DNA of 34,984 nt from a virus. Taxonomy: Duplodnaviria > Caudoviricetes. Shown in pieces: positions 1 to 34,984 of the stretch. The notes under the pieces are model-generated. The model had not been told where the DNA came from. It worked only from the letters and a program-made list of their open reading frames with translations, and searched no databases. Every line of letters starts with the position of its first letter. Position 1 is the first letter of the stretch. Where the stretch lies: the IMG/VR virus record IMGVR_UViG_3300015370_000008, positions 1 to 34,984 of that record; one strand, written 5' to 3'. The translations under genes and the position numbers were made by a program.

Positions 1-123
1 AATCAAAGTATCATCCAACTCAAACCGATTTGAAAACCAGACGGACTTGGTTGAGTTTTCCGGGAATCCTGTAAACCTGTGATTTTTGATTTCCCAGCCG
101 ACCACGCACTTTTTTAGAAAATG
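1..123. repeat. Terminal direct repeat (assembly overlap of a circular contig), left copy
   Basis: 1-123 is identical to 34862-34984, and a minus-strand ORF reads through the junction in frame. Confidence 0.95.
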
Positions 124-645
124 TGGGAAAATTATATTGCTGAACTTGTCCGTCCTTAAAGTCGATTTAAAACGATTATGGAAAACTATATCCTCAGAGA
201 TACCACGGCTGTACAGATAACCCAGGACATTAGATCGTTGATCGTCAATATCCCAGAGCTCCAAATACTGTTTCATGAAATCAAGATCTTGAGCCGTTGA
301 TCTTTTAGATACTCTGACAAAATGATTAGGGTTAACCTTCGGCCGATTTTTCCAACCCAGCCATTTTCGCAACTCAACCCGAACCTTGCCCAGACTAAAA
401 TTATACTCGGCTTGTACAAAATCAATAATAGTGCCGCTGTCTACAACAGATTTAGGACCCCGCTTGAAATAAATATAATACCCCTTCTCCCCAACTGAAA
501 CGACAATCTGTTCCTGATCGCGTCTCATAACTGACGATTTTTTAGTCGTCTTTTTGAGATCAACACAAAAACCCCTTGAAGCTGCAAATTCACAGAGATC
601 AATTTTTGTCTTAAAGAGTTCAAGCTCCTTTTTTTCGTCGTCCAT
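1..645 (-). CDS. DUF3991/TOPRIM primase-like protein, N-terminal part (continues at 34861..34556; about 316 aa in total)
   Basis: Missed by the ORF track because it crosses the junction. My translation from ATG 645: MDDEKKELELFKTKIDLCEFAASRGF...SGTIIDFVQ...YLYSRGIS...NIIFPHF...VVGWEIKN, typical of plasmid DUF3991-toprim proteins. Confidence 0.8.
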   Translation of the reverse strand, partial: MDDEKKELELFKTKIDLCEFAASRGFCVDLKKTTKKSSVMRRDQEQIVVSVGEKGYYIYFKRGPKSVVDSGTIIDFVQAEYNFSLGKVRVELRKWLGWKNRPKVNPNHFVRVSKRSTAQDLDFMKQYLELWDIDDQRSNVLGYLYSRGISEDIVFHNRFKSTLRTDKFSNIIFPHFLKKCVVGWEIKNHRFTGFPENSTKSVWFSNRFELDDTLI

Positions 646-819
646 AATAATATAAAAAACATATTTATATAAGAAAAATAAAAATGTAATAATATAAAAA
701 TATAAATATAGACAAACTTAAAATGCATTGATAAGGATCAATTACAGCAATAAAATAAATTGTAATATAAAAAACATAATATTTAACTTTATATAAAACT
801 ATTAATATATAAAAATGAG
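646..819. promoter_or_regulatory. Very AT-rich divergent intergenic region with repeated (A)ATATAAAA motifs; candidate parS/centromere and par promoter
   Basis: Motif copies at about 649, 691, 764, 791 and 807, directly upstream of parA, where type Ib centromeres usually lie. Confidence 0.45.
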
Positions 820-1407
820 GTGAATATGAAAATCGCTGTTTACAACTTTAAGGGCGGCCAGGGCAAGACCGTTATTAGTTTAAATTTAGCGCTAACATTG
901 GGTTATGGAGTAGTCACAAACGACGTTGTTGCGCCGATACAAAAGATACTCGCAACAGAGGATTTTGTAAAATTGGATAGGGATAGTGTTTTCCCTCAAT
1001 TCCCTGCGGATCTTGATCTTATCTTCGACCTGGGCGGGTATATTGACGATCGTGGAGTCAGCGCATTGCACCAGGCCGACTGGGTTCTTGTTCCAGTTTT
1101 AAACGAAATGGTTGATATCCAGGTTGCAATCAACTCTATTAATGAGTTTAAAAAGCACAACAAAAACATTGTTGTGTTAGCAAACAAGCTTGTAAAAGGC
1201 GATTTTGAAGAGATAAAAGAGGTAGTTGACAACTTTTTTGATCTGCCGGTCTTGCCCATCAAAAAATCAAAAGCTTTACCGAATATCTTTGTCGATAAAA
1301 AATCTGTCAGGGATATGGTCGCGGAGGGCGGACTTAAGCGCTATCATTATGAAGAGGTATCCAAACAATTTGACGATCTAATCAGCTTTATCACAACAAA
1401 AAATTAA
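820..1407 (+). CDS. parA: Short ParA/ParF-type partition ATPase (start may be ATG 826)
   Basis: Deviant Walker A NFKGGQGKT, Walker B-like LIFDLGG, ADWVLVPV; no N-terminal HTH (type Ib). Confidence 0.9.
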   Translation: MNMKIAVYNFKGGQGKTVISLNLALTLGYGVVTNDVVAPIQKILATEDFVKLDRDSVFPQFPADLDLIFDLGGYIDDRGVSALHQADWVLVPVLNEMVDIQVAINSINEFKKHNKNIVVLANKLVKGDFEEIKEVVDNFFDLPVLPIKKSKALPNIFVDKKSVRDMVAEGGLKRYHYEEVSKQFDDLISFITTKN

Positions 1408-1414
1408 GGTAAAC

Positions 1415-1672
1415 ATGGTAGAAAAAAAGAAAAGCTTGGGTGATTACAGTCTCGACAATCCTGAAAATGGATTATTAAAAGTTAAAGGCAAGGCAGGCAG
1501 GAAGGACCGCAAAGAGCGGGGTGTTGAATACGTCTCGATAGCTCCCCAAATCAAAGCGAGCACAAAAAAGCTATTGGCTCAAGCCTTGGCCGGTGATTTT
1601 TACGGCAAAACCCAAAATCAGATTGTAGACGAAGCGATCGTCTACTATATCGAAAACTATGCAAACAATTAA
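1415..1672 (+). CDS. Probable ParG-like centromere-binding protein (RHH-like C-terminus)
   Basis: 85 aa immediately after parA; basic flexible N-terminus, then a strand-helix-helix pattern (VSIAPQIKASTKKLL...TQNQIVDEAIVYYI). Confidence 0.55.
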   Translation: MVEKKKSLGDYSLDNPENGLLKVKGKAGRKDRKERGVEYVSIAPQIKASTKKLLAQALAGDFYGKTQNQIVDEAIVYYIENYANN

Positions 1673-1943
1673 ACTCTCCAAAGATCAAAAAGAGCTCATA
1701 GCCAATAGACTGATAACGAACAACTGGAAAGACCTGCTTGAATCTGGTTTCACCCAGGGCGCTATCAGTGAATTCTTTAGCCCTGACAGCCTCAACTGGA
1801 CATTAATAGAGGACTATTACAACGGGGATTACACTGAAGTGATCCCCCAGGTCAAAACTGCCCTTAAAACCAAAATCAAACTCTTAAGATCTGATTATCT
1901 CAAAGCGATCAAAACGCTTAAGAAAGAATATATCAATAGGTAA
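1659..1943 (+). CDS. Hypothetical protein
   Basis: 94-aa ORF overlapping the upstream gene, in the same operon. Confidence 0.6.
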   Translation: MQTIKLSKDQKELIANRLITNNWKDLLESGFTQGAISEFFSPDSLNWTLIEDYYNGDYTEVIPQVKTALKTKIKLLRSDYLKAIKTLKKEYINR

Positions 1944-1946
1944 ATC

Positions 1947-2500: not shown

Positions 2501-2550
2501 ATCGTGACCGGTCTTTTTCGCTTGACAAAATGACCGGTCACGATTATTTT
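2501..2550 (+). promoter_or_regulatory. Sigma70-like promoter with TGACCGGTC(A) operator sites
   Basis: TTGACA at 2522-2527, 17-nt spacer containing TGACCGGTCACG, TATTTT at 2545-2550; a second site ATCGTGACCGGTC at 2501-2513. Confidence 0.7.
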
Positions 2551-2603
2551 CAATATAATTTATAAATTCACTGTTGATCAACATCGGAATCGGAAAAAGT
2601 TTC

Positions 2604-2783
2604 ATGGCTGAAAATAATCAATCAAAACCAAAAACAAATACTGAAAGAAAAGCTCTTGAGCGTGAGCGTAAAAAAGCCCTTGGATATATTCGTCGTGATG
2701 TGTGGGCGCATCCCGACGACTGGCCTACGCTTAGAGTGTTGGAAAAAAAATTACAAAAAAAGAGAGAGAAAACAAAAAAGTAG
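2604..2783 (+). CDS. Small basic putative DNA-binding regulator (RHH/DUF3018-like)
   Basis: Pattern TNTERKALERERKKALGYIRRDVWAHPDD; flanked by operator-bearing promoters on both sides. Confidence 0.6.
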   Translation: MAENNQSKPKTNTERKALERERKKALGYIRRDVWAHPDDWPTLRVLEKKLQKKREKTKK

Positions 2784-2812
2784 TTGACAACGTGACCGGT
2801 CACGTTTAATAT
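2784..2812 (+). promoter_or_regulatory. Sigma70-like promoter with perfect 18-bp palindromic operator AACGTGACCGGTCACGTT
   Basis: TTGACA 2784-2789, palindrome 2789-2806 filling the 17-nt spacer, TAATAT 2807-2812. Confidence 0.75.
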
Positions 2813-6792: not shown

Positions 6793-7470
6793 ATGACCAA
6801 TACAGCTATATATGTGCGAGTTTCCAAGTCGGACGGCTCACAGGATGTACAAAGACAGATCGATGATCTAAGGGCATTTTGCGAGCTTAACAAGTGGAAC
6901 GTTGCAAAGATCGTCAAGGAGAATGTTTCCGGGCGGAAAAAAAATAGACAGGGAACTGTTGAGTTGATCAATCTGGCCAGGGCGAACCGGATTAAGAAAG
7001 TCTTGGTTCATGAAGTTTCCCGCCTGGGCAGGAATGCGGCCGACGTTTTTCAGACCGTTGAGGCCCTCTGTGAAGCTAAATGCAGCGTATATGATTATCA
7101 GCAACGGCAGGAAACCCTGGATAACAACAATCAAAAAACGGTCTATGCAACCATCATTTTGCCTCTCTTGGCCGGATTTGCCGAACAATGGAGCAATGAC
7201 CATGCGTACAGAATCAGATCAGGATTAAATCGGGCTGTAAAAAACGGAAAAACGTTAGGAAGGAAACCGGCGGAAAAGCTCAAGAATGAAGATAAAGCCG
7301 TTCAGCTACTAATAAAGGGAAAGACCATTGCAGATATTATGAAAGCCTGTAATATCGGGAAATCAACGGTTTTGCGTATCCGCAAAAAGAACGGCTTTGA
7401 AGGGGAACGCCGGATCAGATCCGGCAATGGTTTTGAAGTGGTGGAGCAATTGCAGATAATGTCAAACTAG
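6793..7470 (+). CDS. Serine recombinase (resolvase/invertase family) with C-terminal HTH
   Basis: Catalytic motifs YVRVS, ENVSG and VSRLGRN; GKTLGRKP arm; HTH TIADIMKACNIGKSTVLRI. Confidence 0.92.
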   Translation: MTNTAIYVRVSKSDGSQDVQRQIDDLRAFCELNKWNVAKIVKENVSGRKKNRQGTVELINLARANRIKKVLVHEVSRLGRNAADVFQTVEALCEAKCSVYDYQQRQETLDNNNQKTVYATIILPLLAGFAEQWSNDHAYRIRSGLNRAVKNGKTLGRKPAEKLKNEDKAVQLLIKGKTIADIMKACNIGKSTVLRIRKKNGFEGERRIRSGNGFEVVEQLQIMSN

Positions 7471-8927
7471 TACGATATCAATTGATCACATGCTGATTCG
7501 ATTACTGTTGTATTATGGGTTGTGTCAGCGTTAATAATTTCCACAATCACGTCTTTATTGTCAGACTGCCGTACAGCACAAAAATTTAGCACATCTCCAC
7601 TTGTATCCGTTGATGACGCTTTAAAAGTGTTTGGTTTAACTTTATAGTCGATAGTCCTCGGTATCGTTGCAAATACCGGAACCAATTCCGTACTGGATTG
7701 GTTAAATACATTTTCTCGGCTAATTACTCGTGGAGAAAGTACTTCGCTGTTTTCAGAATACATGTAAAGATAATTCTCTGTTGCAGCGATCTGTAAACCA
7801 GGGGCATGGTGTTCTGAGTATGACAAGTCTATTCTTGATAAATCTGTTGATGCATCGCCAATACTGTAAAGCTCATCATCGCAAATCAAAATTTGCTTGT
7901 TACCAGTTGTCAAATTTTTGCAACTAGACAACGGTTTTTGAGTAGATTTTTTGTAGTAAACCCCATTTTCACCATCCAAATATCGATAATATGCTATTTG
8001 CTGAGAGTAGCGAGGTGTTACACTGCCGCCAGTCGTTGAGTATCTAATAAAATCATCATCCATTCCGCCACGCTGGACAATAAATCCATTGCCGCTTGTC
8101 ATGAAAAAATGATTATCTGTTGCGTTTGCGTTCCAGTTGATTCCGCGATCAGTATCCGGGTAGTTTAGATCTAGATCGTTCGTGCTGTCGCTTGTTACGT
8201 AATTAACGACTGTTCCTGTGTCTATGATCATTTCACCATTTTCATGGATAGCGAATTGTTCGACTCCTGATGCAATGTCCGCTGTTACATCTCCTGTGGT
8301 TGTACTTAGCGCCCGGCTTGCCGTTGCGTCCGGAAGCGTTAACGTTCTCAATTTGTTGTCCGGGGTGCGGAAATAGATTTTACCTCCAACTTCAACAAAA
8401 TAATCAGCATTGCCCAAATTTGAGGATTTTACCGGAACAATGGGCAGCTCAACGGCTGAGTTGTCCGGTCGAACGAACGCTGTTGTTGTATCTCCCGATG
8501 CGTCCCGGAGTTGTACTGTTTTGATGACCGAATCTCGAACTCTATACGCTGCGGTGACTGTTTTACCCGCGCCGCCTCCTATATTAATGGGTTTCATTAC
8601 ACCGTCTTTTTTAACGTAAAACCCATGTGTGGACTCTGTAGTCGTTGACAGTGATTTATTGAGGGCAGCAGAGCTAGAGTTGTTGATAATAACAGCAAAG
8701 TCGACTCCGGCCAGATCTATAGATGTGACCTCCGCTGATTCCATTGTTCCCGTGTCGTCTGTGCCTCCGGTGTCATCTCCATCACCTGGCGTTGTTCCAT
8801 CTCCGGTTGTCGTGCCGGTGTCTGAGTCGTCGTTGTCGCTAGTTGATTGACATCCTGCAAATGCAAATAGCAGGGCAATCAATATTATGATTAGATGCAG
8901 TTTTTTCATGATTCTTCTTTTGATCAA
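7467..8927 (-). CDS. Large lipoprotein (start probably 8909)
   Basis: Signal MKKLHLIIILIALLFAFAGC with lipobox, D/T/G-rich linker, beta-rich body. Confidence 0.8.
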   Translation of the reverse strand: MIKRRIMKKLHLIIILIALLFAFAGCQSTSDNDDSDTGTTTGDGTTPGDGDDTGGTDDTGTMESAEVTSIDLAGVDFAVIINNSSSAALNKSLSTTTESTHGFYVKKDGVMKPINIGGGAGKTVTAAYRVRDSVIKTVQLRDASGDTTTAFVRPDNSAVELPIVPVKSSNLGNADYFVEVGGKIYFRTPDNKLRTLTLPDATASRALSTTTGDVTADIASGVEQFAIHENGEMIIDTGTVVNYVTSDSTNDLDLNYPDTDRGINWNANATDNHFFMTSGNGFIVQRGGMDDDFIRYSTTGGSVTPRYSQQIAYYRYLDGENGVYYKKSTQKPLSSCKNLTTGNKQILICDDELYSIGDASTDLSRIDLSYSEHHAPGLQIAATENYLYMYSENSEVLSPRVISRENVFNQSSTELVPVFATIPRTIDYKVKPNTFKASSTDTSGDVLNFCAVRQSDNKDVIVEIINADTTHNTTVIESACDQLISY

Positions 8928-8958: not shown

Positions 8959-9426
8959 TTATGCTTTGGCGTTTTGGATTTCGTCAATGATTTCCTGTTT
9001 TTTCGCAAGTCGGGCTTTCTGAAATGCGTCAAATTCTGGCTGATCGATCTCTTCCAGATTAAGCCGGGCAAGCATAAACGGGAGTTCATATTTCGGAAAA
9101 TCGTTCTGATTTAGATATTCTTCTATTAACTTCTTTTTGATACCTTTATCGCCTTGCGCCGATATGAGTCTTTTTGTTCTTGCGGCTACTTCTTCTTTTT
9201 TGGCCTCAGCTGCTTTCTCGGCTTCTATCTGCTCTTTTGTTTTAGCGATGTATTCCCATGGCTCACCCTCGGCTATTTTATGCGCCCAGGATTGAGCGGT
9301 AAACTGGAAATTCTCGTCAGGGCCGTTATGTCTTCGATATAGCTCCTGTTCGGCTTTGCCGATTTCTGCCTGGATTTTTGGTTTAGAATCAAATCCGGGG
9401 TAGGTGTCTTTTTGTATTGTTATCAT
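8959..9426 (-). CDS. Probable tail fibre assembly/accessory protein
   Basis: Coupled (ATGA overlap) directly downstream of the fibre gene; call rests on position only. Confidence 0.45.
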   Translation of the reverse strand: MITIQKDTYPGFDSKPKIQAEIGKAEQELYRRHNGPDENFQFTAQSWAHKIAEGEPWEYIAKTKEQIEAEKAAEAKKEEVAARTKRLISAQGDKGIKKKLIEEYLNQNDFPKYELPFMLARLNLEEIDQPEFDAFQKARLAKKQEIIDEIQNAKA

Positions 9427-11198
9427 AGTTTTAAGCAGTTAAAACGTTGGATTGATGTTGGACGGGTTTGAGACGCTTCTCGGGGGGTGCCGTACCCATT
9501 AATTGCGTCTTCAATTGCGTTGGCAGCGATATACTCATTATATGTGCTAACGCCGTCTGCAATCATATCAATTCTGATAGCATCTGGAGTTCCGTTGTTT
9601 GCTACTATTAGCTTCCCGGTGCCATCATTGATGGTTATTTGTTTCCAGTGTCCTTGGTATGCATCCATCTGCTTCGACACCCCCGAATTACCCCCCATAT
9701 CAATAGTCAGATCACCCGATACAGCCACATTAACAGGAGCGCCGGTTTCGGAGTCGAACATGAATACACTGTTGTTGTCTGCTGAGTTGCGGACGATTTT
9801 GCCGATGATTGTTGTTTTGGGAGGATCATCAGCGTAGTAGGGTATATCGTTATTGCTGTTCATGATCCTCGACCACAACTTAAACTTAGCTTTCAGATAC
9901 GCGTCCGTAATATTTGACAGTTCATTAGTCCCTGTAGAAACATAATTCCCCGCTGTTAGCGTCGCTGAGCCGGTCGGACTTTCACGGGTGTGTCTATCGG
10001 GGTCAACACCTTCAGGCCCTCCAAAATGCGACGCATAACGTTTAAAATAACCCCCTTCAGGCGCAACAAAAAATTTATAATAGAGAGAGCTGGTAGATGG
10101 ATTGTAAACAGGCGCGGTGCCCACATCCACCAAGCCGCCGTAGGCTTTCCATGCGTCAATCATCAGCGTCCATTCGTCGTTCACGCCAGATTCAGCAATT
10201 CCGTGATAAGAAAAGCCTGTAAAGTTCGGGATAATATATGGGTGTATAATACGGTTTGGAAAATCGAACTCAGTTGGTCTGCCACCTGAATAGATTTCTT
10301 CCCCGTTAAGAATAATCCGGTTGCCCTCCCCTCTGTTTTTGACATATTGCTGATTATTTAGCTCAGCGTCAGTCGGTATCATACCGGCTTGAAGGGCGAT
10401 GAGTTGAGTGATTGTTTTATCCGTTATAAATTCGCAGATTCCCCCGGCACCACGGACAAAAATATCAAACGGCACACCCCCGCCCTTGTTACCAAGCGGG
10501 ATTTGGAAATGCCTGTCTGTTGTAATTTTTGGGCGGTTATATGTCTCCGGGAATTCAAGAGCGGCGGTCATGGTTTCAATTCCTGCAATCATCGTCCAAT
10601 CGCCTGTTTCTAGCGTGCGGGTTGCGCCGGACTTACGTTTGAATGTTTTGGTAGTAAAATCGTAGTAGGCAAATTTAGGACTGTCAGCGTAATAGTTGAC
10701 TTGTGCTTGTGGTTTCACAACCATGTCCGGTTGTGCGGACTCTAGAAATTCGATCCTCGGTTCCTTTTTAACCGCAATAAACTTTGCAAAATCGGTTTTT
10801 GCGGGGATAGTGGATTGATATTGCCCGGTGTAGAGTATTGGAAAATGATCATCATCAAAAATCAACTCATCATAAGCGGGCAGGTTTAACGCTTCTATCA
10901 CCCCGGTGTCCTGGTTGGCGTACCAGATTTGAAATGTAGAACTGACAGCAACCGCTTTGTCCGGGAACGTTAAACGGTTAAATGTTTTGGTAGTCGGGTT
11001 GTAAAACTCTACGACAATATCAACCAGGCTTGCACCATTCCACGATCCGTCAATCAACCGTGAATGACCGTTTTGAATATACAATATCCAGTTCAATAAA
11101 TGTTGATTCCGATAATAAGCGTCCTGCCAGTCCTCGGACTCGTATTCCGGCATAACCAGCCCGAATTCACTGTCCTGCTTTTCTGTGAGTGTTGCCAT
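9423..11198 (-). CDS. Tail fibre / receptor-binding protein
   Basis: Follows the J- and I-like genes; C-terminal collar-like motifs GVSKQMDAYQGH and PREASQTRPTSI. Confidence 0.7.
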   Translation of the reverse strand: MATLTEKQDSEFGLVMPEYESEDWQDAYYRNQHLLNWILYIQNGHSRLIDGSWNGASLVDIVVEFYNPTTKTFNRLTFPDKAVAVSSTFQIWYANQDTGVIEALNLPAYDELIFDDDHFPILYTGQYQSTIPAKTDFAKFIAVKKEPRIEFLESAQPDMVVKPQAQVNYYADSPKFAYYDFTTKTFKRKSGATRTLETGDWTMIAGIETMTAALEFPETYNRPKITTDRHFQIPLGNKGGGVPFDIFVRGAGGICEFITDKTITQLIALQAGMIPTDAELNNQQYVKNRGEGNRIILNGEEIYSGGRPTEFDFPNRIIHPYIIPNFTGFSYHGIAESGVNDEWTLMIDAWKAYGGLVDVGTAPVYNPSTSSLYYKFFVAPEGGYFKRYASHFGGPEGVDPDRHTRESPTGSATLTAGNYVSTGTNELSNITDAYLKAKFKLWSRIMNSNNDIPYYADDPPKTTIIGKIVRNSADNNSVFMFDSETGAPVNVAVSGDLTIDMGGNSGVSKQMDAYQGHWKQITINDGTGKLIVANNGTPDAIRIDMIADGVSTYNEYIAANAIEDAINGYGTPREASQTRPTSIQRFNCLKL

Positions 11199-13296: not shown

Positions 13297-13475
13297 TCAA
13301 GTTTAAGTTGCGGATGACTCCCGCCGTAGCTACAAGAACCAGTGGAAGAGGTGGTCCCTTTCTCTTTGATCTCCTCGAATATTGCCTCTAACATTTTAAT
13401 TGCAGACGTGGGCACATTGGTTATTCCGGATTTTTCCTTATAGCGTGCTAACGCTCCTTCTGCTGTCATGGTCAT
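13293..13475 (-). CDS. Small baseplate/spike-tip candidate
   Basis: 60 aa, coupled to the spike gene; ends GSCSYGGSHP (Cys/His). Confidence 0.45.
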   Translation of the reverse strand: MTMTAEGALARYKEKSGITNVPTSAIKMLEAIFEEIKEKGTTSSTGSCSYGGSHPQLKLD

Positions 13476-14092: not shown

Positions 14093-14105
14093 AATTTAAA
14101 AATTG

Positions 14106-17999: not shown

Positions 18000-18000
18000 A

Positions 18001-23475: not shown

Positions 23476-23477
23476 TG

Positions 23478-24667: not shown

Positions 24668-25918
24668 TTATGAAGCTGTTAAAGCATAATCGATATCATC
24701 GATGTCGATATACTCGATGTTTGTATAAAACGCCATCAGGTCAAAGTTTTCAACCGCTGGCATGGCATTTAGACTGTTGTAATCGATCAGGGCAAGTTCA
24801 TTCGGATCGTTCACTAGGTAACGCCTTAACGAGTTTTTTTGAGTGTACCAACTCAGGTTTTTCCAGGTTGTCACACAAATCGAATCGGAGGGGAAAAACG
24901 GGACCATGTAAGCCGGTAAACCGCCGTAACTTTTTGTTAGTTGTATGATATCCTTTGATTCGCTCGGGATATCTCCCCATTCTCCAAAAATTTTGGACTC
25001 TTCGTGCTGTACGATCCCCTCACCAACCATCAGCACCAGATTATTGCCGTTACGAAGCCGGGGCGGAATCATGAATTTAATGTCGGCTGCAGCCTGGCTG
25101 AGATTTTTAAAATCAGGTCTGAATGTCCAGTTAGCTGTTGGAGCTGCGACCGTTGGAGCTGCAACGGCAGGGGTACCAGAGGCGGACGTATGGGTTTTGA
25201 TACAAAAAAACTGTGTGCTATCCGAAACAACAGCGTCACCTACAACGTAGGCTGTAGCGTCAGCCCAATCGCCCTTGTTGGTTACGGTTTTGAATTTGCC
25301 TATAGTGACCCTACCACTGCCGGCGATTTGTCCCTCGGATACATAATTCGAGGGGTTAGCAATACGCAATTGCTCCGGCCAGCCGATGTCGACGTCTTTA
25401 AGATCGTTGGCCGGGTCTGTATTGTCGGCTCTGCTTGTGCCGTTCCAGGCAATGAACATTCGGTCACAGGCAATCTTGGTGATTTTGAGTTCCTGAAGAA
25501 TCTGCCGAAAATTCGGAAAGCTGGCATATTCATCGATTTTATCCCAGTCCGTCCTGATATCGTGTTCGTACCGGGTGAGCTCAATTTCTAGGGGATATTC
25601 GGACGATCCTACCAACGCCTTACGTTTAACCGTATCGGTTACTTTTGTCCGTTTGGTGATCGGAGACCCCAGGTCAGAATAGAGTTTACCGGTCTTCAGG
25701 TTGTTAACCGTAAAGTGATTAATACGCTGCATAAATTCAGTCGATTCCTGAATCTCTTTTAGCAACTGTTGAAAAAGAGTAGGGATAACACTGAATTTTT
25801 GTGAAACGTTCTGTACACCATTGGCACGCGCAACAGCCGCCATATATGAGGAAATTTGTTCTTCCCCTGTTAAAATACGTCTTTGCTTGCGATTGCTTGT
25901 TTTTTGAGATCCAGCCAT
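24668..25918 (-). CDS. Major capsid protein (P2 gpN family) with an internal CBM5/12-like insertion
   Basis: KFSVIPT, IQESTEFMQRIN, IACDRMFIAWNGTS, LKDVDIGW, GGLPAYMVPFFP, TWKNLSWYTQ. Confidence 0.93.
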   Translation of the reverse strand: MAGSQKTSNRKQRRILTGEEQISSYMAAVARANGVQNVSQKFSVIPTLFQQLLKEIQESTEFMQRINHFTVNNLKTGKLYSDLGSPITKRTKVTDTVKRKALVGSSEYPLEIELTRYEHDIRTDWDKIDEYASFPNFRQILQELKITKIACDRMFIAWNGTSRADNTDPANDLKDVDIGWPEQLRIANPSNYVSEGQIAGSGRVTIGKFKTVTNKGDWADATAYVVGDAVVSDSTQFFCIKTHTSASGTPAVAAPTVAAPTANWTFRPDFKNLSQAAADIKFMIPPRLRNGNNLVLMVGEGIVQHEESKIFGEWGDIPSESKDIIQLTKSYGGLPAYMVPFFPSDSICVTTWKNLSWYTQKNSLRRYLVNDPNELALIDYNSLNAMPAVENFDLMAFYTNIEYIDIDDIDYALTAS

Positions 25919-25928: not shown

Positions 25929-26810
25929 TTATGCTAGGTATTTATCATCTTTGGAATTTTCATTGTCGTTGAATTCTCCGGTTACGTCGGCAATGTCATC
26001 GCCTAAATCGGTACCGGCGATTATTTCCAGATTGGCGATGCGGTCGGAAAGTTTTTGATTAATCTCTTTTAACTCTGTGATGCCGTCCAGCTTGGAACCA
26101 AAGTCCTCAATGACAGTCAGGACTCTGCCTAGTTTTTCATCCTGTGCCAGGTCTTCGGTATCGGTTTCCTCTTCCTCTCCCCCGCCTGTATCGGAATCGC
26201 TCAAAAATTTTGCTTCCAGCGCTGAGAGACGTTCGTTAAACGTTTTAATGTCGTTATCACTCATTTTTTTACCCTTTAAGATGTTTAAGATTTGCTGTAA
26301 CTTCCCGTCAGAGCCGGAATTGTCAGATGGATTGTTCCGATCGGACAACAACGTTAATTCTTCGCATTTTACCGGCTCTGTAAGAAGATGGTCCCCGGTA
26401 CGTTCTGAAAGATGAAATTCTTCAAGTCCCAAACAGGCCGGGCGGGTTGTTGCGGCTAATCCATACAGATAGGTTGCGCCGGTTTTTGGGAATTTTAAAT
26501 GGAGCTCGCCGGAAAAGAAAATGCCGTTCATATCACGCGAGAGTTGCACCAAATCGGCAGTTGCGGCCAACCTCGCGAAGACCGCCTTAACGCCGGATGG
26601 TGCAACTCCCTCCTTGGTTTCCCAAACCTTGCCAAAATAAGATAAATAGTCGCGGTGCTCCCAATTAATTTTGGCCGTGTAGACGTTGCGATCGTACGTT
26701 GCGGCGCAGTCAGTGACCATTTTATCAGTAACGTCCCGACCGTCTATCGTTTGCCCGGACGTCATGATCAAAATCCAGTCGGTGATCAGGTTGTTTAGTT
26801 TGTCAGACAT
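25929..26810 (-). CDS. Capsid scaffolding protein/protease (P2 gpO-like)
   Basis: TSGQTIDGR, YTAKINWEH, TYLYGLAATTRPACLG. Confidence 0.9.
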   Translation of the reverse strand: MSDKLNNLITDWILIMTSGQTIDGRDVTDKMVTDCAATYDRNVYTAKINWEHRDYLSYFGKVWETKEGVAPSGVKAVFARLAATADLVQLSRDMNGIFFSGELHLKFPKTGATYLYGLAATTRPACLGLEEFHLSERTGDHLLTEPVKCEELTLLSDRNNPSDNSGSDGKLQQILNILKGKKMSDNDIKTFNERLSALEAKFLSDSDTGGGEEEETDTEDLAQDEKLGRVLTVIEDFGSKLDGITELKEINQKLSDRIANLEIIAGTDLGDDIADVTGEFNDNENSKDDKYLA

Positions 26811-26812
26811 GG

Positions 26813-27376
26813 CTAGAACTCCCCTCCAAAATTAAAAAACAAACCGTTGAAACCGGCGTCAACAACATTCCCGTCAACATGCAGCGCGCAGTTTTTATAC
26901 ATCAGGGACCCGGATATAAACAGGGTATCAGTAAGCTCATACAGCAACGAGGCTGTCGCAGATAGACCAGCATTGTAAGCCGAGTATGTATCTGTTGTGT
27001 CTACCGAAGTCATAAAAAAAGCGGGACCAACAGCCCAGAATATCCGCACATTGGCGGCCAGATCCAGAATTGAAACAGTTTCGGCTGATAAAATATGAGA
27101 CTGGATAGTATTCGATGTGTCGTCAGTATGGCGGGAGTTAGCCAGGGAGTAAGAAAACCGCCAGTTTTCAAGACCCTTTGCTTTTGTGGACAGGGCAAAC
27201 GTTATATTTGCATCAGGAACAAAATCAGGTTGTCCTGGACGTGTAAACAATGAGACTCCACCATATATCTGATCAGCTAACAAATTTGTCTGATAAATGA
27301 TCACTACAAAAAACGCTAAAATAAAAATCATCTTCATTATCATTACCATAAAAGGTTTACGACAGCACAAAACCAT
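26813..27376 (-). CDS. Outer-membrane beta-barrel protein (Ail/Lom/OmpA-like moron; true start probably 27349 or later)
   Basis: Signal peptide, alternating amphipathic strands, C-terminal FFNFGGEF (terminal Phe). Confidence 0.75.
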   Translation of the reverse strand: MVLCCRKPFMVMIMKMIFILAFFVVIIYQTNLLADQIYGGVSLFTRPGQPDFVPDANITFALSTKAKGLENWRFSYSLANSRHTDDTSNTIQSHILSAETVSILDLAANVRIFWAVGPAFFMTSVDTTDTYSAYNAGLSATASLLYELTDTLFISGSLMYKNCALHVDGNVVDAGFNGLFFNFGGEF

Positions 27377-27499: not shown

Positions 27500-29035
27500 A
27501 TGCGGGGGAAATTGGGCAAAGAATACAATCTAATAGAAGTAACGCAAAAACGAATCGGGGCACTCGTCAACAAAGATAAAAAGAGTAAATCCGATTATGA
27601 AGAGATTGAAGCCCTCGCCAGTCTGCTTAAAACACTGGAAAAAACAGAGATTGAGAAAATCAAGGCGGACAGTGGAGGCAAACGGGGCAAACGTACAGGC
27701 AGCAAGAAGGGCAAGCGAAATGACATTACAAATGTCAAATGGGACGAGATAAAAAAGCCCGAATTTTTCGAGTATCAAATCCGGTTTATAAAATCCCGAC
27801 ATCGGTTCCACTTTTTACTAAAAAGCCGACAGATAGGTTTTAGTTGGGCATGTGCCTGGAAGATCATAGAGCTGATGATTGAGAGCAAGGGCAATAACTG
27901 TGTTGTTATTTCAGCTTCAAAAGCTCAGGCATTTGTAATCAGAGATTACATCGTTGTATTTTGCGCCGAAAACCTGGGAATCGAAGTTGATGCCGGGGGC
28001 GATGAAATCAAGTTCACAAAAGACGGTAAGCCCTGGTCAAAATGCAGATTTAGAGGATCAAACAGTTGGACAGGGCAGTCATACAGCGCCCACTTATTTA
28101 TCGATGAATGTTTTTGGGTACCGGGATTTGATAAGGTCGAAAAAGCAGCTCGACCGATCGCCATGCACGCCAAATGGACAAGAACCTATTTTTCAGCCCC
28201 GTCGTTTAAGTCGCATCCAGCGTACAGAATGTGGATGCCCGATGATATTGAGGATTTTATACTAGATGCTGAAGGACCCGACGGTTGCTACCGGGAGATT
28301 ATAGATTTAGAAACAGCCATTGCCCAAGGGTTTAATCTGCAGACAAAAGAGCAGATACAAAAAGAGTACAAGGATGATTATGCTCAACTGTGTGGCTGTG
28401 AGTTCGTTGACGACAATGACTCAGTTTTCCCTTGGACAAAAATAGAACATCTGATGAAAGATACAAGCGCCTGGGACTGGAAAGAGCTTAGGGAATCCCC
28501 ATCCTGGGGCGGTTCAGATCCGTCTTTAAGAGGGGATGACGCAGCCTTCGGTTTGGTGTCTCCCCCGACGCCGTTAAGGAAAAAATATAAAGTCCTGATC
28601 ACGGAAACCTGGAACAACGTCCATTTTGAGGGAGTTTCAAACGGAATCAAAGAGCTCACGGCCGATTTTAACATGACACAATTTGCCCTCGACTATAACG
28701 GGCTGGGTGAGGGATTTCTGGCAACCGTTGAAAAATGGTTCCCCCATGTTTGCGGGCTTTGGTACTCCAATCAGATAAAAAACGAAATCGTCGGCAAGGC
28801 AAAGGACATTTTTGACCGGGGATTGATTGAACTGCCGATCGATGATTATGAATTGGCTAACGCCCTGGTCAGGATAAAACGCAAGCCGACCAAGTCGGGG
28901 CACGCTCTGACTTATGAAAGCGATCGCATAAAAAAGACCGGGGATCATGCCGACAAAGGCTGGGCGATCATTAACGCCCTGTCATTTCACGAATACACCG
29001 AGGAACTTGGCACCTCAATATCATTTATAAGCTAA
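27500..29035 (+). CDS. Terminase ATPase subunit (P2 gpP-like), lacking the N-terminal HTH
   Basis: LKSRQIGFSW Walker A, SASKAQA, LFIDE Walker B, GSDPS...DD nuclease, GDHADKGWA. Confidence 0.93.
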   Translation: MRGKLGKEYNLIEVTQKRIGALVNKDKKSKSDYEEIEALASLLKTLEKTEIEKIKADSGGKRGKRTGSKKGKRNDITNVKWDEIKKPEFFEYQIRFIKSRHRFHFLLKSRQIGFSWACAWKIIELMIESKGNNCVVISASKAQAFVIRDYIVVFCAENLGIEVDAGGDEIKFTKDGKPWSKCRFRGSNSWTGQSYSAHLFIDECFWVPGFDKVEKAARPIAMHAKWTRTYFSAPSFKSHPAYRMWMPDDIEDFILDAEGPDGCYREIIDLETAIAQGFNLQTKEQIQKEYKDDYAQLCGCEFVDDNDSVFPWTKIEHLMKDTSAWDWKELRESPSWGGSDPSLRGDDAAFGLVSPPTPLRKKYKVLITETWNNVHFEGVSNGIKELTADFNMTQFALDYNGLGEGFLATVEKWFPHVCGLWYSNQIKNEIVGKAKDIFDRGLIELPIDDYELANALVRIKRKPTKSGHALTYESDRIKKTGDHADKGWAIINALSFHEYTEELGTSISFIS

Positions 29036-30072
29036 TGCAAACCGAAACGGAAGCCACACAAGACCAATCGGCCCTGATATTCACATTTGGAGATCCGGAA
29101 CCAGTAATTGAGGACGGGCTTGAGGATATTTTACAGACCTTCTGGCATATCGACGGGGAATACTACCTGCCGCCGGTGTCATTTGATTTGCTGAATAAAA
29201 TATTTAACAAAAACCCGGCCCTACAATCCGCAATCCACGCACGCAAACGCTCGTTTATCTCAACCTATAAACCGAATAAATACATATCCAGAAAGGTGAT
29301 GGAACGGGCGTTTATAGATTTTGATATTTTCGGCAACGCTTTCCTGCGTATACGCCTGGGCGGCTTACGAAATCTTAGACGGCTTGAGCACTTACCGACC
29401 AGGCCGACCAGGATCGGAGAGAAGAAGATTTACCAGCTCAGGGATTTTGACGATCCGCTGGAATTCGACAAAGAGGAAATCATACACATAGACGAGTATA
29501 ACCCCTCATCATCAATATACGGGATGCCGGAACATGTCGCCATCATCGGGCAGGCAGCCCTGGCCACCGAAAGCGTAAAATTCAGAACAAAATATTTTGT
29601 GAACGGTGCCCACATGGGTTATTTGCTCCATATTCACGATCCTAAATTCACAAAGGAAGAACAGGGAAAAGTACAGGAACAGTTGAAAGCCAAGAAGGGC
29701 GCCGGTAATTTCAATTCCATGTTGATAGTAACCAGGACCCAGGGCAAAGACGGTGAAAACAAAGTTGAATTAAAACCGGTCGGTGAAATCACGTCAAAAG
29801 ATGAATTCAGGAATATCATGGAGCTCACAACCGCCCAGGTTTTAATGACCAAACGGGTACCGTTGGCCATGATGGCCGTGATGCCAGGCAAAGCAAATTT
29901 TGGCTCACAAAAAGACGCCGTCAACAACTATGCAGTCAACGAAATAGCACAAATACAGGCGGATTTTGCTGAAATGCTTAATCCACATTTGCCGCCGGAT
30001 GGGCAGGTCGAATTCTCTGATTTCAGGGATTTGATTGCATCCAAAACCGAAAGCGCCCAGGCGGTTAGCTAG
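29035..30072 (+). CDS. Portal protein (PBSX family, P2 gpQ-like)
   Basis: FTFGDPEPV, YYLPPVS, IYGMPE, YFVNGAHMGY, KGAGNF, KDEFRNI. Confidence 0.93.
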   Translation: MQTETEATQDQSALIFTFGDPEPVIEDGLEDILQTFWHIDGEYYLPPVSFDLLNKIFNKNPALQSAIHARKRSFISTYKPNKYISRKVMERAFIDFDIFGNAFLRIRLGGLRNLRRLEHLPTRPTRIGEKKIYQLRDFDDPLEFDKEEIIHIDEYNPSSSIYGMPEHVAIIGQAALATESVKFRTKYFVNGAHMGYLLHIHDPKFTKEEQGKVQEQLKAKKGAGNFNSMLIVTRTQGKDGENKVELKPVGEITSKDEFRNIMELTTAQVLMTKRVPLAMMAVMPGKANFGSQKDAVNNYAVNEIAQIQADFAEMLNPHLPPDGQVEFSDFRDLIASKTESAQAVS

Positions 30073-31202
30073 TGAGCAATTTTTAATTGATCGAATGCTT
30101 TGTAATACGAGGGACCAACCGGGATGATTGAACCGTTTACCATTTTAAGTGATCGAACCCTTTTCCCTCTGAACTCGCAGATCTTGGACGGATTGACGCA
30201 ATGGGAGCGATGGACACGGGTTAAAAAGGACTCATCGAAAAACATGGAAACATCTGAAATCGATAACTCGATTCTTGTTGAATTGAGCTTGCCGAAATCA
30301 ACAAGAATTGCCCTTCCGTCCGCTTTGACGGAAATAACGGAATTCCGGTCATAACCCAGGGTACAGATTTTTTTAAATAGATCTGAATTAATAACAAAAC
30401 GCAAATTACCAACAATAAAACGCACCTGCTCAAAAATCGCCAGGGCGTAGTTTTTTGACAGGGAGTTTTTACACCGAAACATAAACGTATAATCGTTATA
30501 ATCGCCGGTTGTATAGATCAAAAAATCATTCAACTGCGTGGCGGATCTGCCACCGGCAACCCATTTTTGAAACGTGTTTTCCAGGAGTTTACGATCAGTC
30601 TGATAGTGTTTCAGAACGTCATTAAAAAAAACGGCGGGGTGGTTGATAGATTCAGTTTCAACGAGAGTGTCAAAAACAGCTTTTGCAAGCACGTCAACAG
30701 ACGAATAGATCGAAAAATTACTTGCAAAATGCTTCAATTTCTTCTGTATTTCTTGACCTGCCATAGCCTCATTTAGCGCACAGTATGTCCTCAGACAGGC
30801 AGTAATTGACGTGTATAGGTGCTGACTCAGCAAATCGCCCTTTTCGATAAAATTATCAATTGCATAATCCATGATCACTTTGGACGCAGGGATGTCGCCG
30901 GGGTGCCCGGTAATCACAATAATCCGTGTCAGCACGTCGTTAAGGGAACCACGAATAAAACGAACCAGGTCAAGCCCTGCGTTTTTGGACTCCATGACGA
31001 CGTCTAACAGGATGAGCTCAAATTTGCATTTTTCAAGTTTTCGCCTTGCTTCGTACGCAGAATAAGCGCTTACGAAGTTAATTTTATTTTTTTGGAAAGT
31101 ATAGTTCCGAAAAATCATCTTGATCATGCGATGAAAATCGGGAATATCGTCAACAATCAAAATATTCCAATAGTTCATGTTAACAAGCCCTTGCATGTTC
31201 AT
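30069..31202 (-). CDS. Orphan response regulator: REC + central domain + LytTR DNA-binding domain
   Basis: ILIVDD, phospho-acceptor LLDVVME, ITGHPG, IEK; C-terminal FLTRVHRSHCVN...IPVGPSY (LytTR). Confidence 0.85.
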   Translation of the reverse strand: MNMQGLVNMNYWNILIVDDIPDFHRMIKMIFRNYTFQKNKINFVSAYSAYEARRKLEKCKFELILLDVVMESKNAGLDLVRFIRGSLNDVLTRIIVITGHPGDIPASKVIMDYAIDNFIEKGDLLSQHLYTSITACLRTYCALNEAMAGQEIQKKLKHFASNFSIYSSVDVLAKAVFDTLVETESINHPAVFFNDVLKHYQTDRKLLENTFQKWVAGGRSATQLNDFLIYTTGDYNDYTFMFRCKNSLSKNYALAIFEQVRFIVGNLRFVINSDLFKKICTLGYDRNSVISVKADGRAILVDFGKLNSTRIELSISDVSMFFDESFLTRVHRSHCVNPSKICEFRGKRVRSLKMVNGSIIPVGPSYYKAFDQLKIAH

Positions 31203-31678: not shown

Positions 31679-31975
31679 ATGAATTGTCCATATTGCCGAT
31701 CAAAACGATACGTTGTTGTCAAAACCAACCCCGACGAGGACGGCCAGTCCGGCGAGATTGTTCAGCAGTGTCTTGAATGCTATGAAATCTCGGTTTTCCA
31801 TTACTCTAAGATCAGAGGCGTAAAGTCCCGAAAACAGGACGAAATAAAGGGACTGGTAATGGCATTGCGCAAAGTCCTTAATGACAACGATCCGGACGAA
31901 CTTGAACGTTTCAACGATCGACTGCGAAAAGTGAGCAAGAACCCCGAGTTCTTTTCACGCAGGAGGTCAGTATGA
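31679..31975 (+). CDS. Ogr/Delta-like zinc-finger transcriptional activator candidate
   Basis: AGGAG RBS; MNCPYC...QCLEC; P2-like context. Cys spacing differs from canonical Ogr. Confidence 0.55.
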   Translation: MNCPYCRSKRYVVVKTNPDEDGQSGEIVQQCLECYEISVFHYSKIRGVKSRKQDEIKGLVMALRKVLNDNDPDELERFNDRLRKVSKNPEFFSRRRSV

Positions 31976-33084
31976 TGGTTATACAAACGGCAGATCGCAA
32001 AGAAACCCTGATCTATGACAAAAACGGTAAAAAAGTGGAAAAGAAACTTCAAGACTACGAAATCAGCAAACCAAGCCAACTGACAATATTTGAGTTTCTG
32101 GACGAAGAGAACTATTCAAATACAGTCGATATCTTTGACCTGGTACCCAAGTTTCTCAACAGAAACCCAAGAAGCAATACCGGCCGGTTGGAACCCATCA
32201 AAAAATACCCTGTCATTAAGATCAACGGGAAGGATTTACGATTCCAGGTAACAATTACTCCCGCAACAATAGAGGTTGAAAACGGTGTATTCAGAGACCT
32301 ATTCCCCACGATCCGGGAGGAAGTCGTCGAGCTGGGGATTCGAAAACTTGCCTTCAGTGGCCAGGGCAAATATTTTGACAAAAAAGCAGGGGCTCTTTTT
32401 ACGGTCACACAACTGCACAAACTCCTGAAAGAGCATAAGCGGGGGTATGACAAATCGGATATTATGCAAGCCATAGAAGTTTTAAAAAAAACCACGATTG
32501 ATATCAAATGCCTGGATGATGACGCATTTCCCCGAATATCTGTAAACTATGTCAGTGACAGTTATACACAGACGTTGGCAGCTTACAACAAAGGTGTTAA
32601 CGACTCAAAGTGTTTTGTAATTTTTAATTCCATGGTGACAGATTCTATCAACCAAAAAACACTGAGAATGTATAATTATAAGATGCTGATGCAGTACAAG
32701 AACATCATTGCCGATCATCTTCATATGAGAATCACCAGAAACATGAAATATGCCGCTTACAATGGCAAGGAAAATGTTTTCCGGATTTCGCAAAGCACGC
32801 TGGAACGGGATACAAACATGCCGATTTATGAAAATTACAGGGATAACAAACGACAGGTTATCACCGCTCTGAATAAGATGAAGGAGTGCGGATCGGTTGA
32901 AGAGTACTGGGGAGAAGATGAGAAGGAAGGGAAAAAAACCATAAACACAATGTATTACCTCAGAATATCAAAAAACTTTTGTGATGAGATAATACAAGCA
33001 AATCAAAAGATCGATAACGCAAGAACTCCGGCAGAAAAGATTGAACATAGAATTAACATACTGAAAAAACAAGGAGTACTATAA
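31972..33084 (+). CDS. repA: Plasmid replication initiator, IncA/C RepA-like
   Basis: QLTIFE...YSNTVDIFDLVPKF, REEVVELGIRKLA, AGALFTVTQL, CFVIFNSMVTDSI...YNYK match IncA/C RepA motifs as I recall them; iterons follow directly. Confidence 0.85.
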   Translation: MMVIQTADRKETLIYDKNGKKVEKKLQDYEISKPSQLTIFEFLDEENYSNTVDIFDLVPKFLNRNPRSNTGRLEPIKKYPVIKINGKDLRFQVTITPATIEVENGVFRDLFPTIREEVVELGIRKLAFSGQGKYFDKKAGALFTVTQLHKLLKEHKRGYDKSDIMQAIEVLKKTTIDIKCLDDDAFPRISVNYVSDSYTQTLAAYNKGVNDSKCFVIFNSMVTDSINQKTLRMYNYKMLMQYKNIIADHLHMRITRNMKYAAYNGKENVFRISQSTLERDTNMPIYENYRDNKRQVITALNKMKECGSVEEYWGEDEKEGKKTINTMYYLRISKNFCDEIIQANQKIDNARTPAEKIEHRINILKKQGVL

Positions 33085-33142
33085 ACCTGTTGAAAACCTG
33101 TTTAAAACCTGTTGAAAACCCTGTGCAAAAACTGTTGAAAAC
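33083..33142. repeat. Five tandem ~11-bp repeats AAACCTGTTGA (DnaA-box-like)
   Basis: Seen directly after the repA stop; TGTTGAAAA and TGTGCAAAA are 2-mismatch variants of TGTGGATAA. Confidence 0.6.
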
Positions 33143-33150
33143 GAACATAC

Positions 33151-33397
33151 CCCTAGTCGTGATTCTTCGCAGGAGCAAAATTTGCCTAGCAAAGGACCAA
33201 AAAATCGAACATATAAAGCCCCCACCCTAGTCGTGATTCTTCGCAGAAAGCCCCCACCCTAGTCGTGATTCTTCGCAGTAACCCCCCACCCTAGTCGTGA
33301 TTCTTCGCAGAAAGACTTTTACCCTGGTCGTGATTCTTCGCAGTAACCCCACCCTAGTCGTGATTCTTCGCAGTAACCTAGTCGTGATTCTTCGCAG
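33151..33397 (+). repeat. Iteron array (oriV): 7 copies of ~22-bp CCCTAGTCGTGATTCTTCGCAG
   Basis: Copies start at 33151, 33225, 33257, 33289, 33322, 33352 and 33376; the core spacing of 30-33 bp is about 3 helical turns. Confidence 0.9.
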
Positions 33398-34149
33398 TAA
33401 AAACCACGAATAAGCAGTCAAAACAGCCCAATAAAGGCAATTTACAGCAGCCTAACCATATCTTTATTTTTATCCCTTTATCCCTTTAGGGAAACACACA
33501 CAAACAAATGCAACAGGAATAAACCTGCCGTAAAATCCATCTGGGCAAAAAAAAATTTGCCGCTTAGAGCGGCCTGGACAAAATGCCTTTGCTGGCCACC
33601 TATCCCTCTCACTCAACCCACGGGCAGTAGGAATCAATAGTGCTCGTTGCACTCGCCTAAATACAATATTCTTTATGGAGTCAGCTAAACGCTGACAATT
33701 ATACAACTGAAATGTCGTGTTCGCTACGCTCACCATTTAAACAATTAACAAAGGGCAGCAGGGAAGAAGAAAGTTCAAGAACTGTTCCGATCTCTTTAAT
33801 ACCACCTAATAAAATGGACTCCCCCGCCACCGCACGGGTTTTGAACCTTTTTGTTAAAAATTCCGGTTGTAATATCGGGCAGAATTGAGGAATCTTTGCT
33901 TTAAGTAATTAGTGAAGGTTGAACTAATGCGGGAATTACCAAAAAATTCGAAAAACTATAAAAGTTGGTTTTATATAAAATTGCAGATAATAGAATAATT
34001 ACAATGAATATAAAAACAGGCTTATAAGCTATCAATGTTGAGCTTAAGGTTTATTGATTCCCGTTTTTACCAAAGCGATCAGACATAAGTTAAATATTGG
34101 AAATTACCGCAAAAAACAAAAATAACACGCAAACAACTAATATTATAAA

Positions 34150-34563
34150 ATGACAGGGAAGAGAGAAGAAGCAATAAGTATGATCAAAAGTGAAAGTTTT
34201 ACGATTGCTGATATATCAAAAAAAACCGGTGTTCCGAAATCAACTCTCAGGTATTGGAGTGATAAACTATCCGCAAAAATACCAACCGCCAGGTCAACAA
34301 AAAAAGAAAAAGCGGAACAGATGATTATAAATGGCTATTCAAACACCGAAATAATCAAAAATTTAAAGGTTCCGGCGTCAACACTATACGATTGGATAAA
34401 AAAAGAATCCTGGGGCGTTATTGAGCCCTTGGGAAAGGCAAAAAAACGATTTTGCTTGTTAGTGAGTCGGGAAGATAAAACAAGAAAGGAAATAAAAGAA
34501 TTGGAAACTCTTGCAAACGTAATAGAAACGCTGACACGTGCGGAGGCTTTAAAAACTACATAA
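34150..34563 (+). CDS. Tandem-HTH protein resembling the N-terminal domain of P2 gpP terminase
   Basis: Two HTHs (VPKSTLRYW, VPASTLYDW), then KESW...RFCLLVSREDKTRKEIKELETL, resembling gpP RDGW...RLTQLIIKPQKTGGDFKEIDLL. Confidence 0.7.
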   Translation: MTGKREEAISMIKSESFTIADISKKTGVPKSTLRYWSDKLSAKIPTARSTKKEKAEQMIINGYSNTEIIKNLKVPASTLYDWIKKESWGVIEPLGKAKKRFCLLVSREDKTRKEIKELETLANVIETLTRAEALKTT

Positions 34564-34861
34564 TTTTAGAAGCCCTGAGATCATCATTCCAGTCGTTTGA
34601 TTTGGGCTTGAGAATGATCGGAGATCTGTTATCATTCAGACCCACCAGAATATTTTTAATAGCATCCGTGTATTTGATCCCTTCATTATCATTATTGAAA
34701 GCGGTAATAATGTTATGTCGCGGGAAGCTCTTGATTGCCATACTAATCATATTTTCAGATTCTGGACCCCAACCGCCTGCCGTGGCCAGGCACCAGGCAT
34801 GATCAAAAAATTCAGGAAAGAGAGCATAAAACGAAAGCGCTTCGATCCCGGCTTCAGTTAG
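34556..34861 (-). CDS. DUF3991/TOPRIM primase-like protein, C-terminal part (joined to 645..1)
   Basis: TOPRIM motifs ILTEAGIEALSF, ATAGG, IITAFNNDNEG, PKSNDWNDDL. Confidence 0.8.
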   Translation of the reverse strand, partial: LTEAGIEALSFYALFPEFFDHAWCLATAGGWGPESENMISMAIKSFPRHNIITAFNNDNEGIKYTDAIKNILVGLNDNRSPIILKPKSNDWNDDLRASKIM

Positions 34862-34984
34862 AATCAAAGTATCATCCAACTCAAACCGATTTGAAAACCA
34901 GACGGACTTGGTTGAGTTTTCCGGGAATCCTGTAAACCTGTGATTTTTGATTTCCCAGCCGACCACGCACTTTTTTAGAAAATG
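34862..34984. repeat. Terminal direct repeat, right copy
   Basis: Identical to 1-123. Confidence 0.95.

Follow-up and report, generated by a model that had tools for sequence, protein, structure and literature searches.

What kind of life is led by a phage in which P2-family head genes stand beside a plasmid replicon? The question is raised by IMG/VR virus record IMGVR_UViG_3300015370_000008, a circularly assembled groundwater phage genome, of which the whole 34,984-bp record (the window; unit circle 34,861 bp) was analysed. The genome combines a P2-family head, an HP1-type tail and an iteron replicon, and it is probably carried as a low-copy plasmid prophage rather than integrated. Plasmid life in the host is likely because the genome encodes partition functions and has an origin of plasmid type, and no integrase was found. 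The element branches deeply as a lineage of its own, with a lifestyle probably like that of the plasmid prophage KS14 and a different replicon; it belongs neither to the genus of KS14 nor to the IncA/C plasmids. Its new features are a RepA that is only distantly IncA/C-like, a split gpP, the lack of a recognisable endolysin, and head-less tail cassettes as the closest sheath relatives.

Insight into the replicon comes from RepA and from the repeats that follow its gene. The first-pass annotation had described repA with seven iterons, and both stand: the seven 20-bp repeats compare with none expected from 100 shuffles. Seven are also present in G001, another complete genome (36,167 bp; 100% complete, with terminal repeats) that is collinear with the window, where they are spaced by 65, 32, 32, 32, 30 and 24. 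RepA has no match in Pfam, PHROG or NCBIfam and none among 50,697 phage records, and it matches 1,284 of 72,556 plasmid records, always below 60% identity (27-32% for the best 30, one of which is typed IncA). A RepA profile matched 1,014 cluster representatives; it forms a cluster of its own, at 50-58% identity, with four environmental proteins, and the four nearest proteins reach 54-58% in local alignment. The fold model (predicted local distance difference test score, pLDDT, 91) has RctB, pi and RepE54 as its top Foldseek matches (best E 3e-8, template modelling score ~0.4), and the predicted fold is the two-winged-helix fold of the RepE/pi/RctB initiators. That annotation had also called the replicon IncA/C-type, which is right for the RepA family (E 1e-34) but not for the iterons, whose sequence does not resemble the iterons of the IncA plasmid that was compared. 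An IncA/IncC plasmid shares with the window the RepA family (~29% identity over 88% of the length) and iterons downstream of repA; it differs in having at least 12 iterons of other sequence, and the window is without conjugation genes. Because RepA is only ~29% identical and the iterons are of another sequence, the element has an IncA/C-family RepA but not an IncA/C replicon. Short repeats between repA and the iterons resemble DnaA boxes, and the conserved block 3' of the iterons is likely the unwinding element.

The functions that would be expected of an integrating P2-like phage were sought in both complete genomes. As had been noted at first reading, no integrase, gpA or CI is recognisable: PF00589, PF05840 and PF01381 gave no match in either genome at E<=0.1, with positive controls in 14, 2 and 14 of 14 genomes, respectively. 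When 29 early, lysis and replication proteins of relatives were used as queries, only ParA matched (E<0.01), and no C or Cox was found. The ParA, the serine resolvase and the DUF3991-Toprim_2 protein of the same annotation are confirmed by a Pfam/PHROG scan of 49 non-shadow open reading frames (ORFs) chosen among the 129 listed, and the ParA partner is assigned by position only. G001 carries its own ParA and its own resolvase at matching positions. Three copies of TAATATAAAAA lie 5' of parA in AT-rich DNA (648-773), a parS candidate that was not found in G001.

The integrity of the assembly has been examined at several levels. The circular element of about 34.9 kb that had been proposed is borne out by an exact 123-bp terminal repeat and by the record itself (class direct terminal repeats, 100% complete). 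Between the window and G001 the head proteins are 22-36% identical, the tail and baseplate proteins 47-71%, RepA 58% and the TOPRIM protein 42%. (The head identity, far below that of tail and RepA, suggests exchange of the head module or its faster change.) Six sequencing runs hold part of the window sequence, five of them labelled groundwater metagenome; contigs of four were aligned to window positions 24600-33080 (8.5 of 35 kb), and none of these contigs shows a chromosomal flank. In run X1, a single 34,757-bp contig has this segment at contig positions 26113-34593, without a difference and at a depth of 147. By arithmetic from these 8.5 kb, its ends map to ~33349 and ~33244 on the 34,861-bp circle, within the iteron array, so that the contig would cross the ends of the window. 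One contig of run X2 (3.2 Mb; depth 16-1066, like amplified DNA) bridges TerL to repA; contigs of run X3, which also contains chimeric joins, bridge portal to regulator and regulator to repA. Scans of viral contigs for RepA, sheath, J, TerL and tandem iterons returned only G001, and a metagenome scan gave two loci in all, the window and G001. No locus was found by RepA among genome contigs, the capsid search returned the self-match only, and neither the sheath in phages nor J in plasmids gave a match. (Three loci in viral contigs had a weak 59-residue TerL match; one, L020, was examined and set aside.)

The relatives that share the tail show what the element may have replaced. The nearest genome matches of the tail are two chromosomal contigs, one titled Candidatus Lambdaproteobacteria, a class that NCBI places in Pseudomonadota and that GTDB names SAR324. 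In a search confined to that phylum, the sheath was found in 8 of 88 genomes, a P2 capsid in 7 and a distant RepA in 1. This RepA (G086:C67, L073; 25% identity) lies with a ParA on a 3.5-kb contig, unlinked to the capsid fragments C98 and C100 of the same genome; together, these short contigs could represent a further phage-plasmid. Four prophages in metagenome-assembled genomes (MAGs), namely G080 (C81), G084 (C46), G078 (C328) and G089, have tail or completion genes of the window's type. An integrase is over the cut-off in three and weak in one, a CI-type helix-turn-helix (HTH) protein and CII are present in all four, ParA in three, and a large TOPRIM primase-like protein in two; no full-length gpA match was seen in them. 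Host genes are read on the flanks of G080 and G089, and the prophages of G084 and G078 reach a contig end. (In G080, G084 and G078 an integrase occurs together with ParA and a small partner, possibly a dual lifestyle.) The prophages differ from the window in having int, CI, CII and a full-length gpP, and in G080 and G089 a peptidase-like ORF, identified by eye, replaces gpO. Since integrated prophages that share the tail carry int, CI and CII, the comparison supports an exchange in which this module would have given way to RepA, iterons and resolvase. The first-pass annotation had proposed that the whole early module was replaced by a plasmid kit. The early region does differ from that of the integrating relatives, but the module there is int/CI/CII, gpA was not seen, and ParA is already present in three of the four. 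These matches make a host in the phylum of Candidatus Lambdaproteobacteria likely.

Two MAGs, one of them Candidatus Lambdaproteobacteria, contain head-less, tailocin-like contractile tail cassettes amid host genes (L023:9456-18334 and L024:9452-21070). Their genomes, both incomplete, gave no capsid and no RepA match, and the cassettes gave no tape-measure match. In cassettes and MAG prophages the tail genes are those of the window, in the same order, with identities of 22-51%. The cassettes are the closest sheath relatives: in the sheath tree they branch as the sister group of the window plus G001 (Shimodaira-Hasegawa approximate likelihood ratio test 94), an arrangement that the J tree does not show. 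(G002 and G089 have two sheath loci each.)

The particle genes form a complete virion set, with P2-family Q, P, O, N and M in divergent P and O operons. The Q-P/O-N-M-L-R-S order named at first reading is borne out by Pfam and PHROG families (portal, Terminase_6N/6C, Phage_GPO, Phage_cap_P2 at E 7e-64, Phage_term_smal, Phage_tail_S), with L and R, which have no family match, placed by position and orthologues only; both occur in G001, L also in a related prophage and R in a tail cassette. The capsid scores 171 bits against TIGR01551, under the cut-off of 220. Trees of TerL, portal and capsid (13 rows, midpoint root, six cultured or plasmid P2-like references; the capsid tree a quick one only) place the window and G001 on a branch of their own outside the references (TerL 100/99, portal 94/89, capsid 98). 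The capsid also carries an insert, seen relative to the solved structures 7oz4 and 7jw1, with a CBM_5_12 match at E 4e-4 that is under the cut-off. G001 has it too, and in all five MAG capsids that were aligned the same loop holds another insert, which in the MAG prophages is longer than that of the window. The insert may be displayed on the particle surface. (A capsid fold model from a two-row alignment, with pLDDT 33, was discarded.)

The large terminase is unusual in that it misses the first ~60 residues of gpP. No upstream frame provides them, and in both complete genomes the gpP N-terminal HTH is a separate gene. The protein of this gene matches 171 phage records, mostly annotated as terminase among the 15 listed, and its counterpart at the same position in G001 (G001:529-834) matches a profile of six gpP N-termini at E 2e-9. 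Four of five MAG TerLs retain the segment (three by profile, one by eye), and it is absent from G071. The gpP HTH is likely supplied in trans; a complex prediction of the small protein with the TerL N-terminus scored 0.06 against a mark of 0.32, which counts neither way. (G071:C13:28092-32718 holds a fused gpO-gpN ORF of 684 residues and a 464-residue TerL without the N-terminal HTH.)

The contractile tail had likewise been recognised correctly, with a DUF2586/phrog_907 sheath, baseplate J and a tape measure. Its best reference matches are Haemophilus phage HP1 and Vibrio phage K139, not P2. The sheath, J, gpM, gpO and S of the window are of the same type as theirs, and the tail genes follow the same order; unlike the window, these two are integrating phages with CI, Cox and a nicking Rep, and their sheath is too distant for tblastn.

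In the lysis slot between S and the sheath, an endolysin-like ORF is seen by eye in three of the four integrated relatives; G084 shows none, and no endolysin was recognised in either complete genome by the Pfam/PHROG scan or with nine endolysin queries. The slot of the window holds a patatin-like protein, presumably lacking the usual nucleophile (serine) motif, and two membrane proteins. One of these, of 281 residues, gave low-score Lcl_C/adhesion leads only (all <0.9) in an Atlas search. (The interval 19777-22400 also holds a 79-residue protein with a weak EF-Ts N-terminal match; three slot proteins have G001 counterparts.)

At first reading the element had matched none of the P1, N15 and SSU5 phage-plasmid groups. 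A P2-like phage-plasmid is not in itself new: the concept has been in print since 2010, when the plasmid prophage KS14 was described (PMC3091744). That paper describes a P2-like phage without tyrosine integrase, whose genes include those for RepB, ParA and a serine recombinase of invertase type, and that was recovered as a plasmid by miniprep from five resistant isolates. In the 2021 phage-plasmid catalogue of Pfeifer et al. (PMC7969092), KS14 and P88 stand in a loose VP882 community. KS14 (Burkholderia; Peduoviridae, Kisquattuordecimvirus; 32 kb) resembles the window in its P2-family head, small serine recombinase and lack of a tyrosine integrase, and in a gene order in which O/P-Q is followed by rep and then parA with its partner, directly after the portal. 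It differs in its Rep, a 251-residue RepB with no detectable similarity to the RepA of the window, and in its tail, which is of P2 type; it also has a repressor, a complete lysis cassette, a CHC2 protein of 923 residues and a gpP whose N-terminus is intact, and its head proteins are ~30% identical and lie on separate branches. The RepB, P2-type tail and lysis genes of Kisquattuordecimvirus were not found in the window, and neither were the gpA, int and C/Cox typical of Peduoviridae, which KS14 lacks as well. The plasmids Zymomonas pZM36 and Haematospirillum NZ_CP014526 are, like the window, circular (33-36 kb), with P2 heads, parA and no annotated integrase; unlike it, they have P2-type tails, annotated lysis enzymes, toxin-antitoxin pairs and no RepA homologue. 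The part of the pZM36 account that was available (PMC5930841) gives ~1 copy per cell and describes phage genes, with particles not mentioned there. Literature searches, which left most subscription papers uncovered, returned no title on Peduoviridae phage-plasmids of the window's kind and nothing on SAR324 phage-plasmids or prophage tailocins, or on the P2 terminase with closed circular DNA; the Lambdaproteobacteria prophage papers found concern inoviruses. A P2-family capsid and a 35-kb size presumably speak against membership of the P1, N15 or SSU5 groups.

Other ways to read the same gene set differ in what they make of the missing functions. The absence of an endolysin from both complete genomes, the patatin-like and membrane proteins where most relatives have an endolysin-like ORF, and the partial pZM36 account of phage genes with no particles would fit a cryptic, lysis-defective or non-lytic plasmid with an intact virion operon, which exits the cell with the aid of a helper phage, if it exits at all. 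This is unlikely, since no head or tail ORF is interrupted, the tail is 47-71% conserved between the window and G001, the G084 slot also shows no endolysin, and the enzyme may be merely unrecognised. A lytic or carrier-state phage with RepA as a mere replicative initiator would account for the lack of a recognised CI, and the X1 depth of 147 lacks a host value to compare it with; against this, ParA with its partner, resolvase and iterons are maintenance functions that both genomes keep, and KS14 provides a precedent, so that we give this idea a rather small chance.

The phrog_95 'integrase' match of the small recombinase (E 1e-24) might instead point to an excised prophage that integrates by means of this enzyme. 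Its 225 residues comprise only Resolvase and HTH_7, its best PHROG is a DNA invertase, and serine integrases have 450-600 residues according to Lynch 2010 (PMC3091744); the aligned contigs moreover show no chromosomal flank, and integration of this kind is very improbable. An assembly chimera of phage and plasmid could be suspected from the lower G+C content of the early region (35-41%, versus 42-53% in most of the virion region) and from the common assembly of the two complete genomes. Yet the rep-virion junctions, which the first-pass annotation had named as the place where a chimera would show, are the same in the diverged G001 and are bridged from portal to repA by contigs of three runs; the idea is largely refuted already and has next to no chance.

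Several points nevertheless weigh against the low-copy plasmid prophage. Its plasmid state, low copy number and particles are predictions from sequence, and the host assignment comes from homology only. ParA by itself does not imply plasmid life, because three of the four integrated relatives have it. The lytic cycle and the lysogeny switch are left unexplained, as the searches identified neither an endolysin nor a holin family nor a CI. The best P2-type cos site agrees at 14 of 19 positions, the level of shuffles (KS14 also reaches only 14 of 19). The MAG prophages form a sister group for the tail only, since in the TerL and portal trees a well-supported branch unites the window and G001 with the six P2-like references, cultured Peduoviridae among them, and leaves those prophages apart. 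There are only two complete members, independent genomes yet not independent samples because both records come from one assembly, and X1 and X2 may be the window's own source data.

If the plasmid prophage is accepted, its cycle may be pictured as follows. RepA would bind the seven iterons and host DnaA the adjacent boxes, and theta replication would start with the opening, by RepA, of the conserved block 3' of the iterons; segregation of the copies would fall to ParA and its partner, and the resolvase would split dimers. Upon induction, the Ogr-like protein would turn on the O and P operons, and gpM and gpP would cut and package unit-length DNA, with the gpP HTH likely coming from the separate gene. 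The lineage itself likely arose when the int/CI/CII module, kept by the tail-related integrated prophages, was swapped for an iteron replicon. The P2 terminase prefers closed circular monomers as substrate, and the first-pass annotation had supposed that a theta replicon would be a direct source of them; since the gpA replication of P2 itself also makes monomer circles, this argument does not distinguish the window. A 1985 title by Bowden and Modrich, cited in PMC7552001, bears on circular packaging.

The features on which this account draws are collected in the table, together with the cargo genes. Among the early features, a candidate operator/repressor unit has three copies of TGACCGGTC(A), two of which fill the sigma70-like spacers that flank a 59-residue ORF; it was looked for in G001 and not found, and its function as operator and repressor is putative. 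PADLOC gave two weak partial matches on 15 cargo ORFs, which were rejected.

Table. Features of the 34,984-bp window and the evidence for each (aa, amino acids)
Feature	Position	Strand	Evidence
Terminal direct repeat (assembly overlap)	1..123, copy 34862-34984		100% identical; same length in G001
RepA, iteron-type initiator, IncA/C RepA family, 370 aa	31972..33084	+	plasmid matches, profile, fold model
Short DnaA-box-like repeats	33082..33141	+	conserved in G001
Seven 20-bp iterons, spacing 74, 32, 32, 33, 30, 24	33153..33397	+	
Non-coding pyrimidine-rich block 3' of iterons	33450..33495	+	conserved in alignment with G001
ParA-type ATPase	820..1407	+	CbiA/AAA_31, phrog_164
Likely ParA partner, 85 aa	1415..1672	+	position only; no family match
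Small protein shared with integrated prophage in G080	1659..1943	+	phmmer E 6.5e-17
Candidate operator/repressor unit	2505..2812	+	two sigma70-like promoters, palindrome GTGACCGGTCAC in spacers, 59-aa ORF 2604-2783
Small serine resolvase/invertase, 225 aa	6793..7470	+	Resolvase + HTH_7; 26% to G001 counterpart, same position
DUF3991 + TOPRIM protein, 5' part (316 aa across origin)	1..645	-	DUF3991; 42% to G001 orthologue
DUF3991 + TOPRIM protein, 3' part	34556..34984	-	Toprim_2 E 2e-9
Free-standing gpP N-terminus homologue (HTH + helical hairpin)	34150..34563	+	PF06056 over cut-off
gpP, large terminase without N-terminal HTH	27500..29035	+	Terminase_6N/6C; comparison with gpP
gpQ, portal	29035..30072	+	phrog_68 E 7e-77
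gpO, scaffold/protease	25929..26810	-	Phage_GPO E 3.5e-28
gpN, major capsid with ~60-aa CBM_5_12-like insert (aa 208-268)	24668..25918	-	Phage_cap_P2
gpM	23866..24666	-	Phage_term_smal E 4e-15
S, R-like and L-like completion genes	22397..23876	-	S: Phage_tail_S; R, L: position and orthologues
Zn-ribbon protein, likely Ogr/Delta-type late activator	31679..31975	+	weak profile E 0.04; G001 counterpart E 6e-4; position
HP1-type contractile sheath	18494..19780	-	DUF2586, phrog_907; HP1/K139 matches
Tail chaperone and tube	17501..18453	-	chaperone: K139 E 5e-4; tube: position, 69% to G001
Tape measure protein	15396..17348	-	PhageMin_Tail E 6e-17
Baseplate block (I-, J-, W-, V-, D-, U-like)	11198..15358	-	Baseplate_J, phrog_4011; 47-71% to G001; rest by position
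Likely tail fibre	9423..11198	-	position; N-terminal ~150 aa common to G001, prophages, tail cassettes
Small hydrophobic holin-like protein, lysis slot	20018..20299	-	by eye and position; no family match
Membrane-anchored 281-aa protein, lysis slot	20360..21205	-	weak G001 counterpart
Patatin-like protein, lysis slot	21207..22400	-	weak CBASS_lipase E 0.007; 26% to G001
Predicted lipoprotein (cargo)	7467..8927	-	lipobox-like N-terminus by eye; weak NF050142
Gene for a beta-barrel-like outer-membrane protein (cargo), located between O and P	26813..27376	-	by eye; no family match
REC-DUF3369-LytTR response regulator (cargo)	30069..31202	-	not in G001; full-length 32% homologue in G084

Taken together, these results allow a bolder proposal, which is possible but rather doubtful: that the window and G001 are a new family-level phage-plasmid lineage of Lambdaproteobacteria-phylum bacteria, with a trans-acting terminase DNA-recognition subunit, an exit from the cell without endolysin, a carbohydrate-binding module on every capsid subunit, and a close relative whose tail the host group has domesticated as a head-less tailocin-like particle. 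If this is true, the split would reveal gpP to be a motor fused to a small-terminase-like module. Whether or not this proposal holds, the natural split of gpP offers a direct test of which part of the terminase recognises cos in P2-like phages. P2-type heads appear to have adopted a plasmid lifestyle on more than one occasion and with unrelated replicons, the RepB of KS14 and the IncA/C-family RepA of the window. In a little-studied groundwater group, one tail lineage appears in three states: as an integrated prophage, as a likely plasmid prophage and as a head-less chromosomal cassette.

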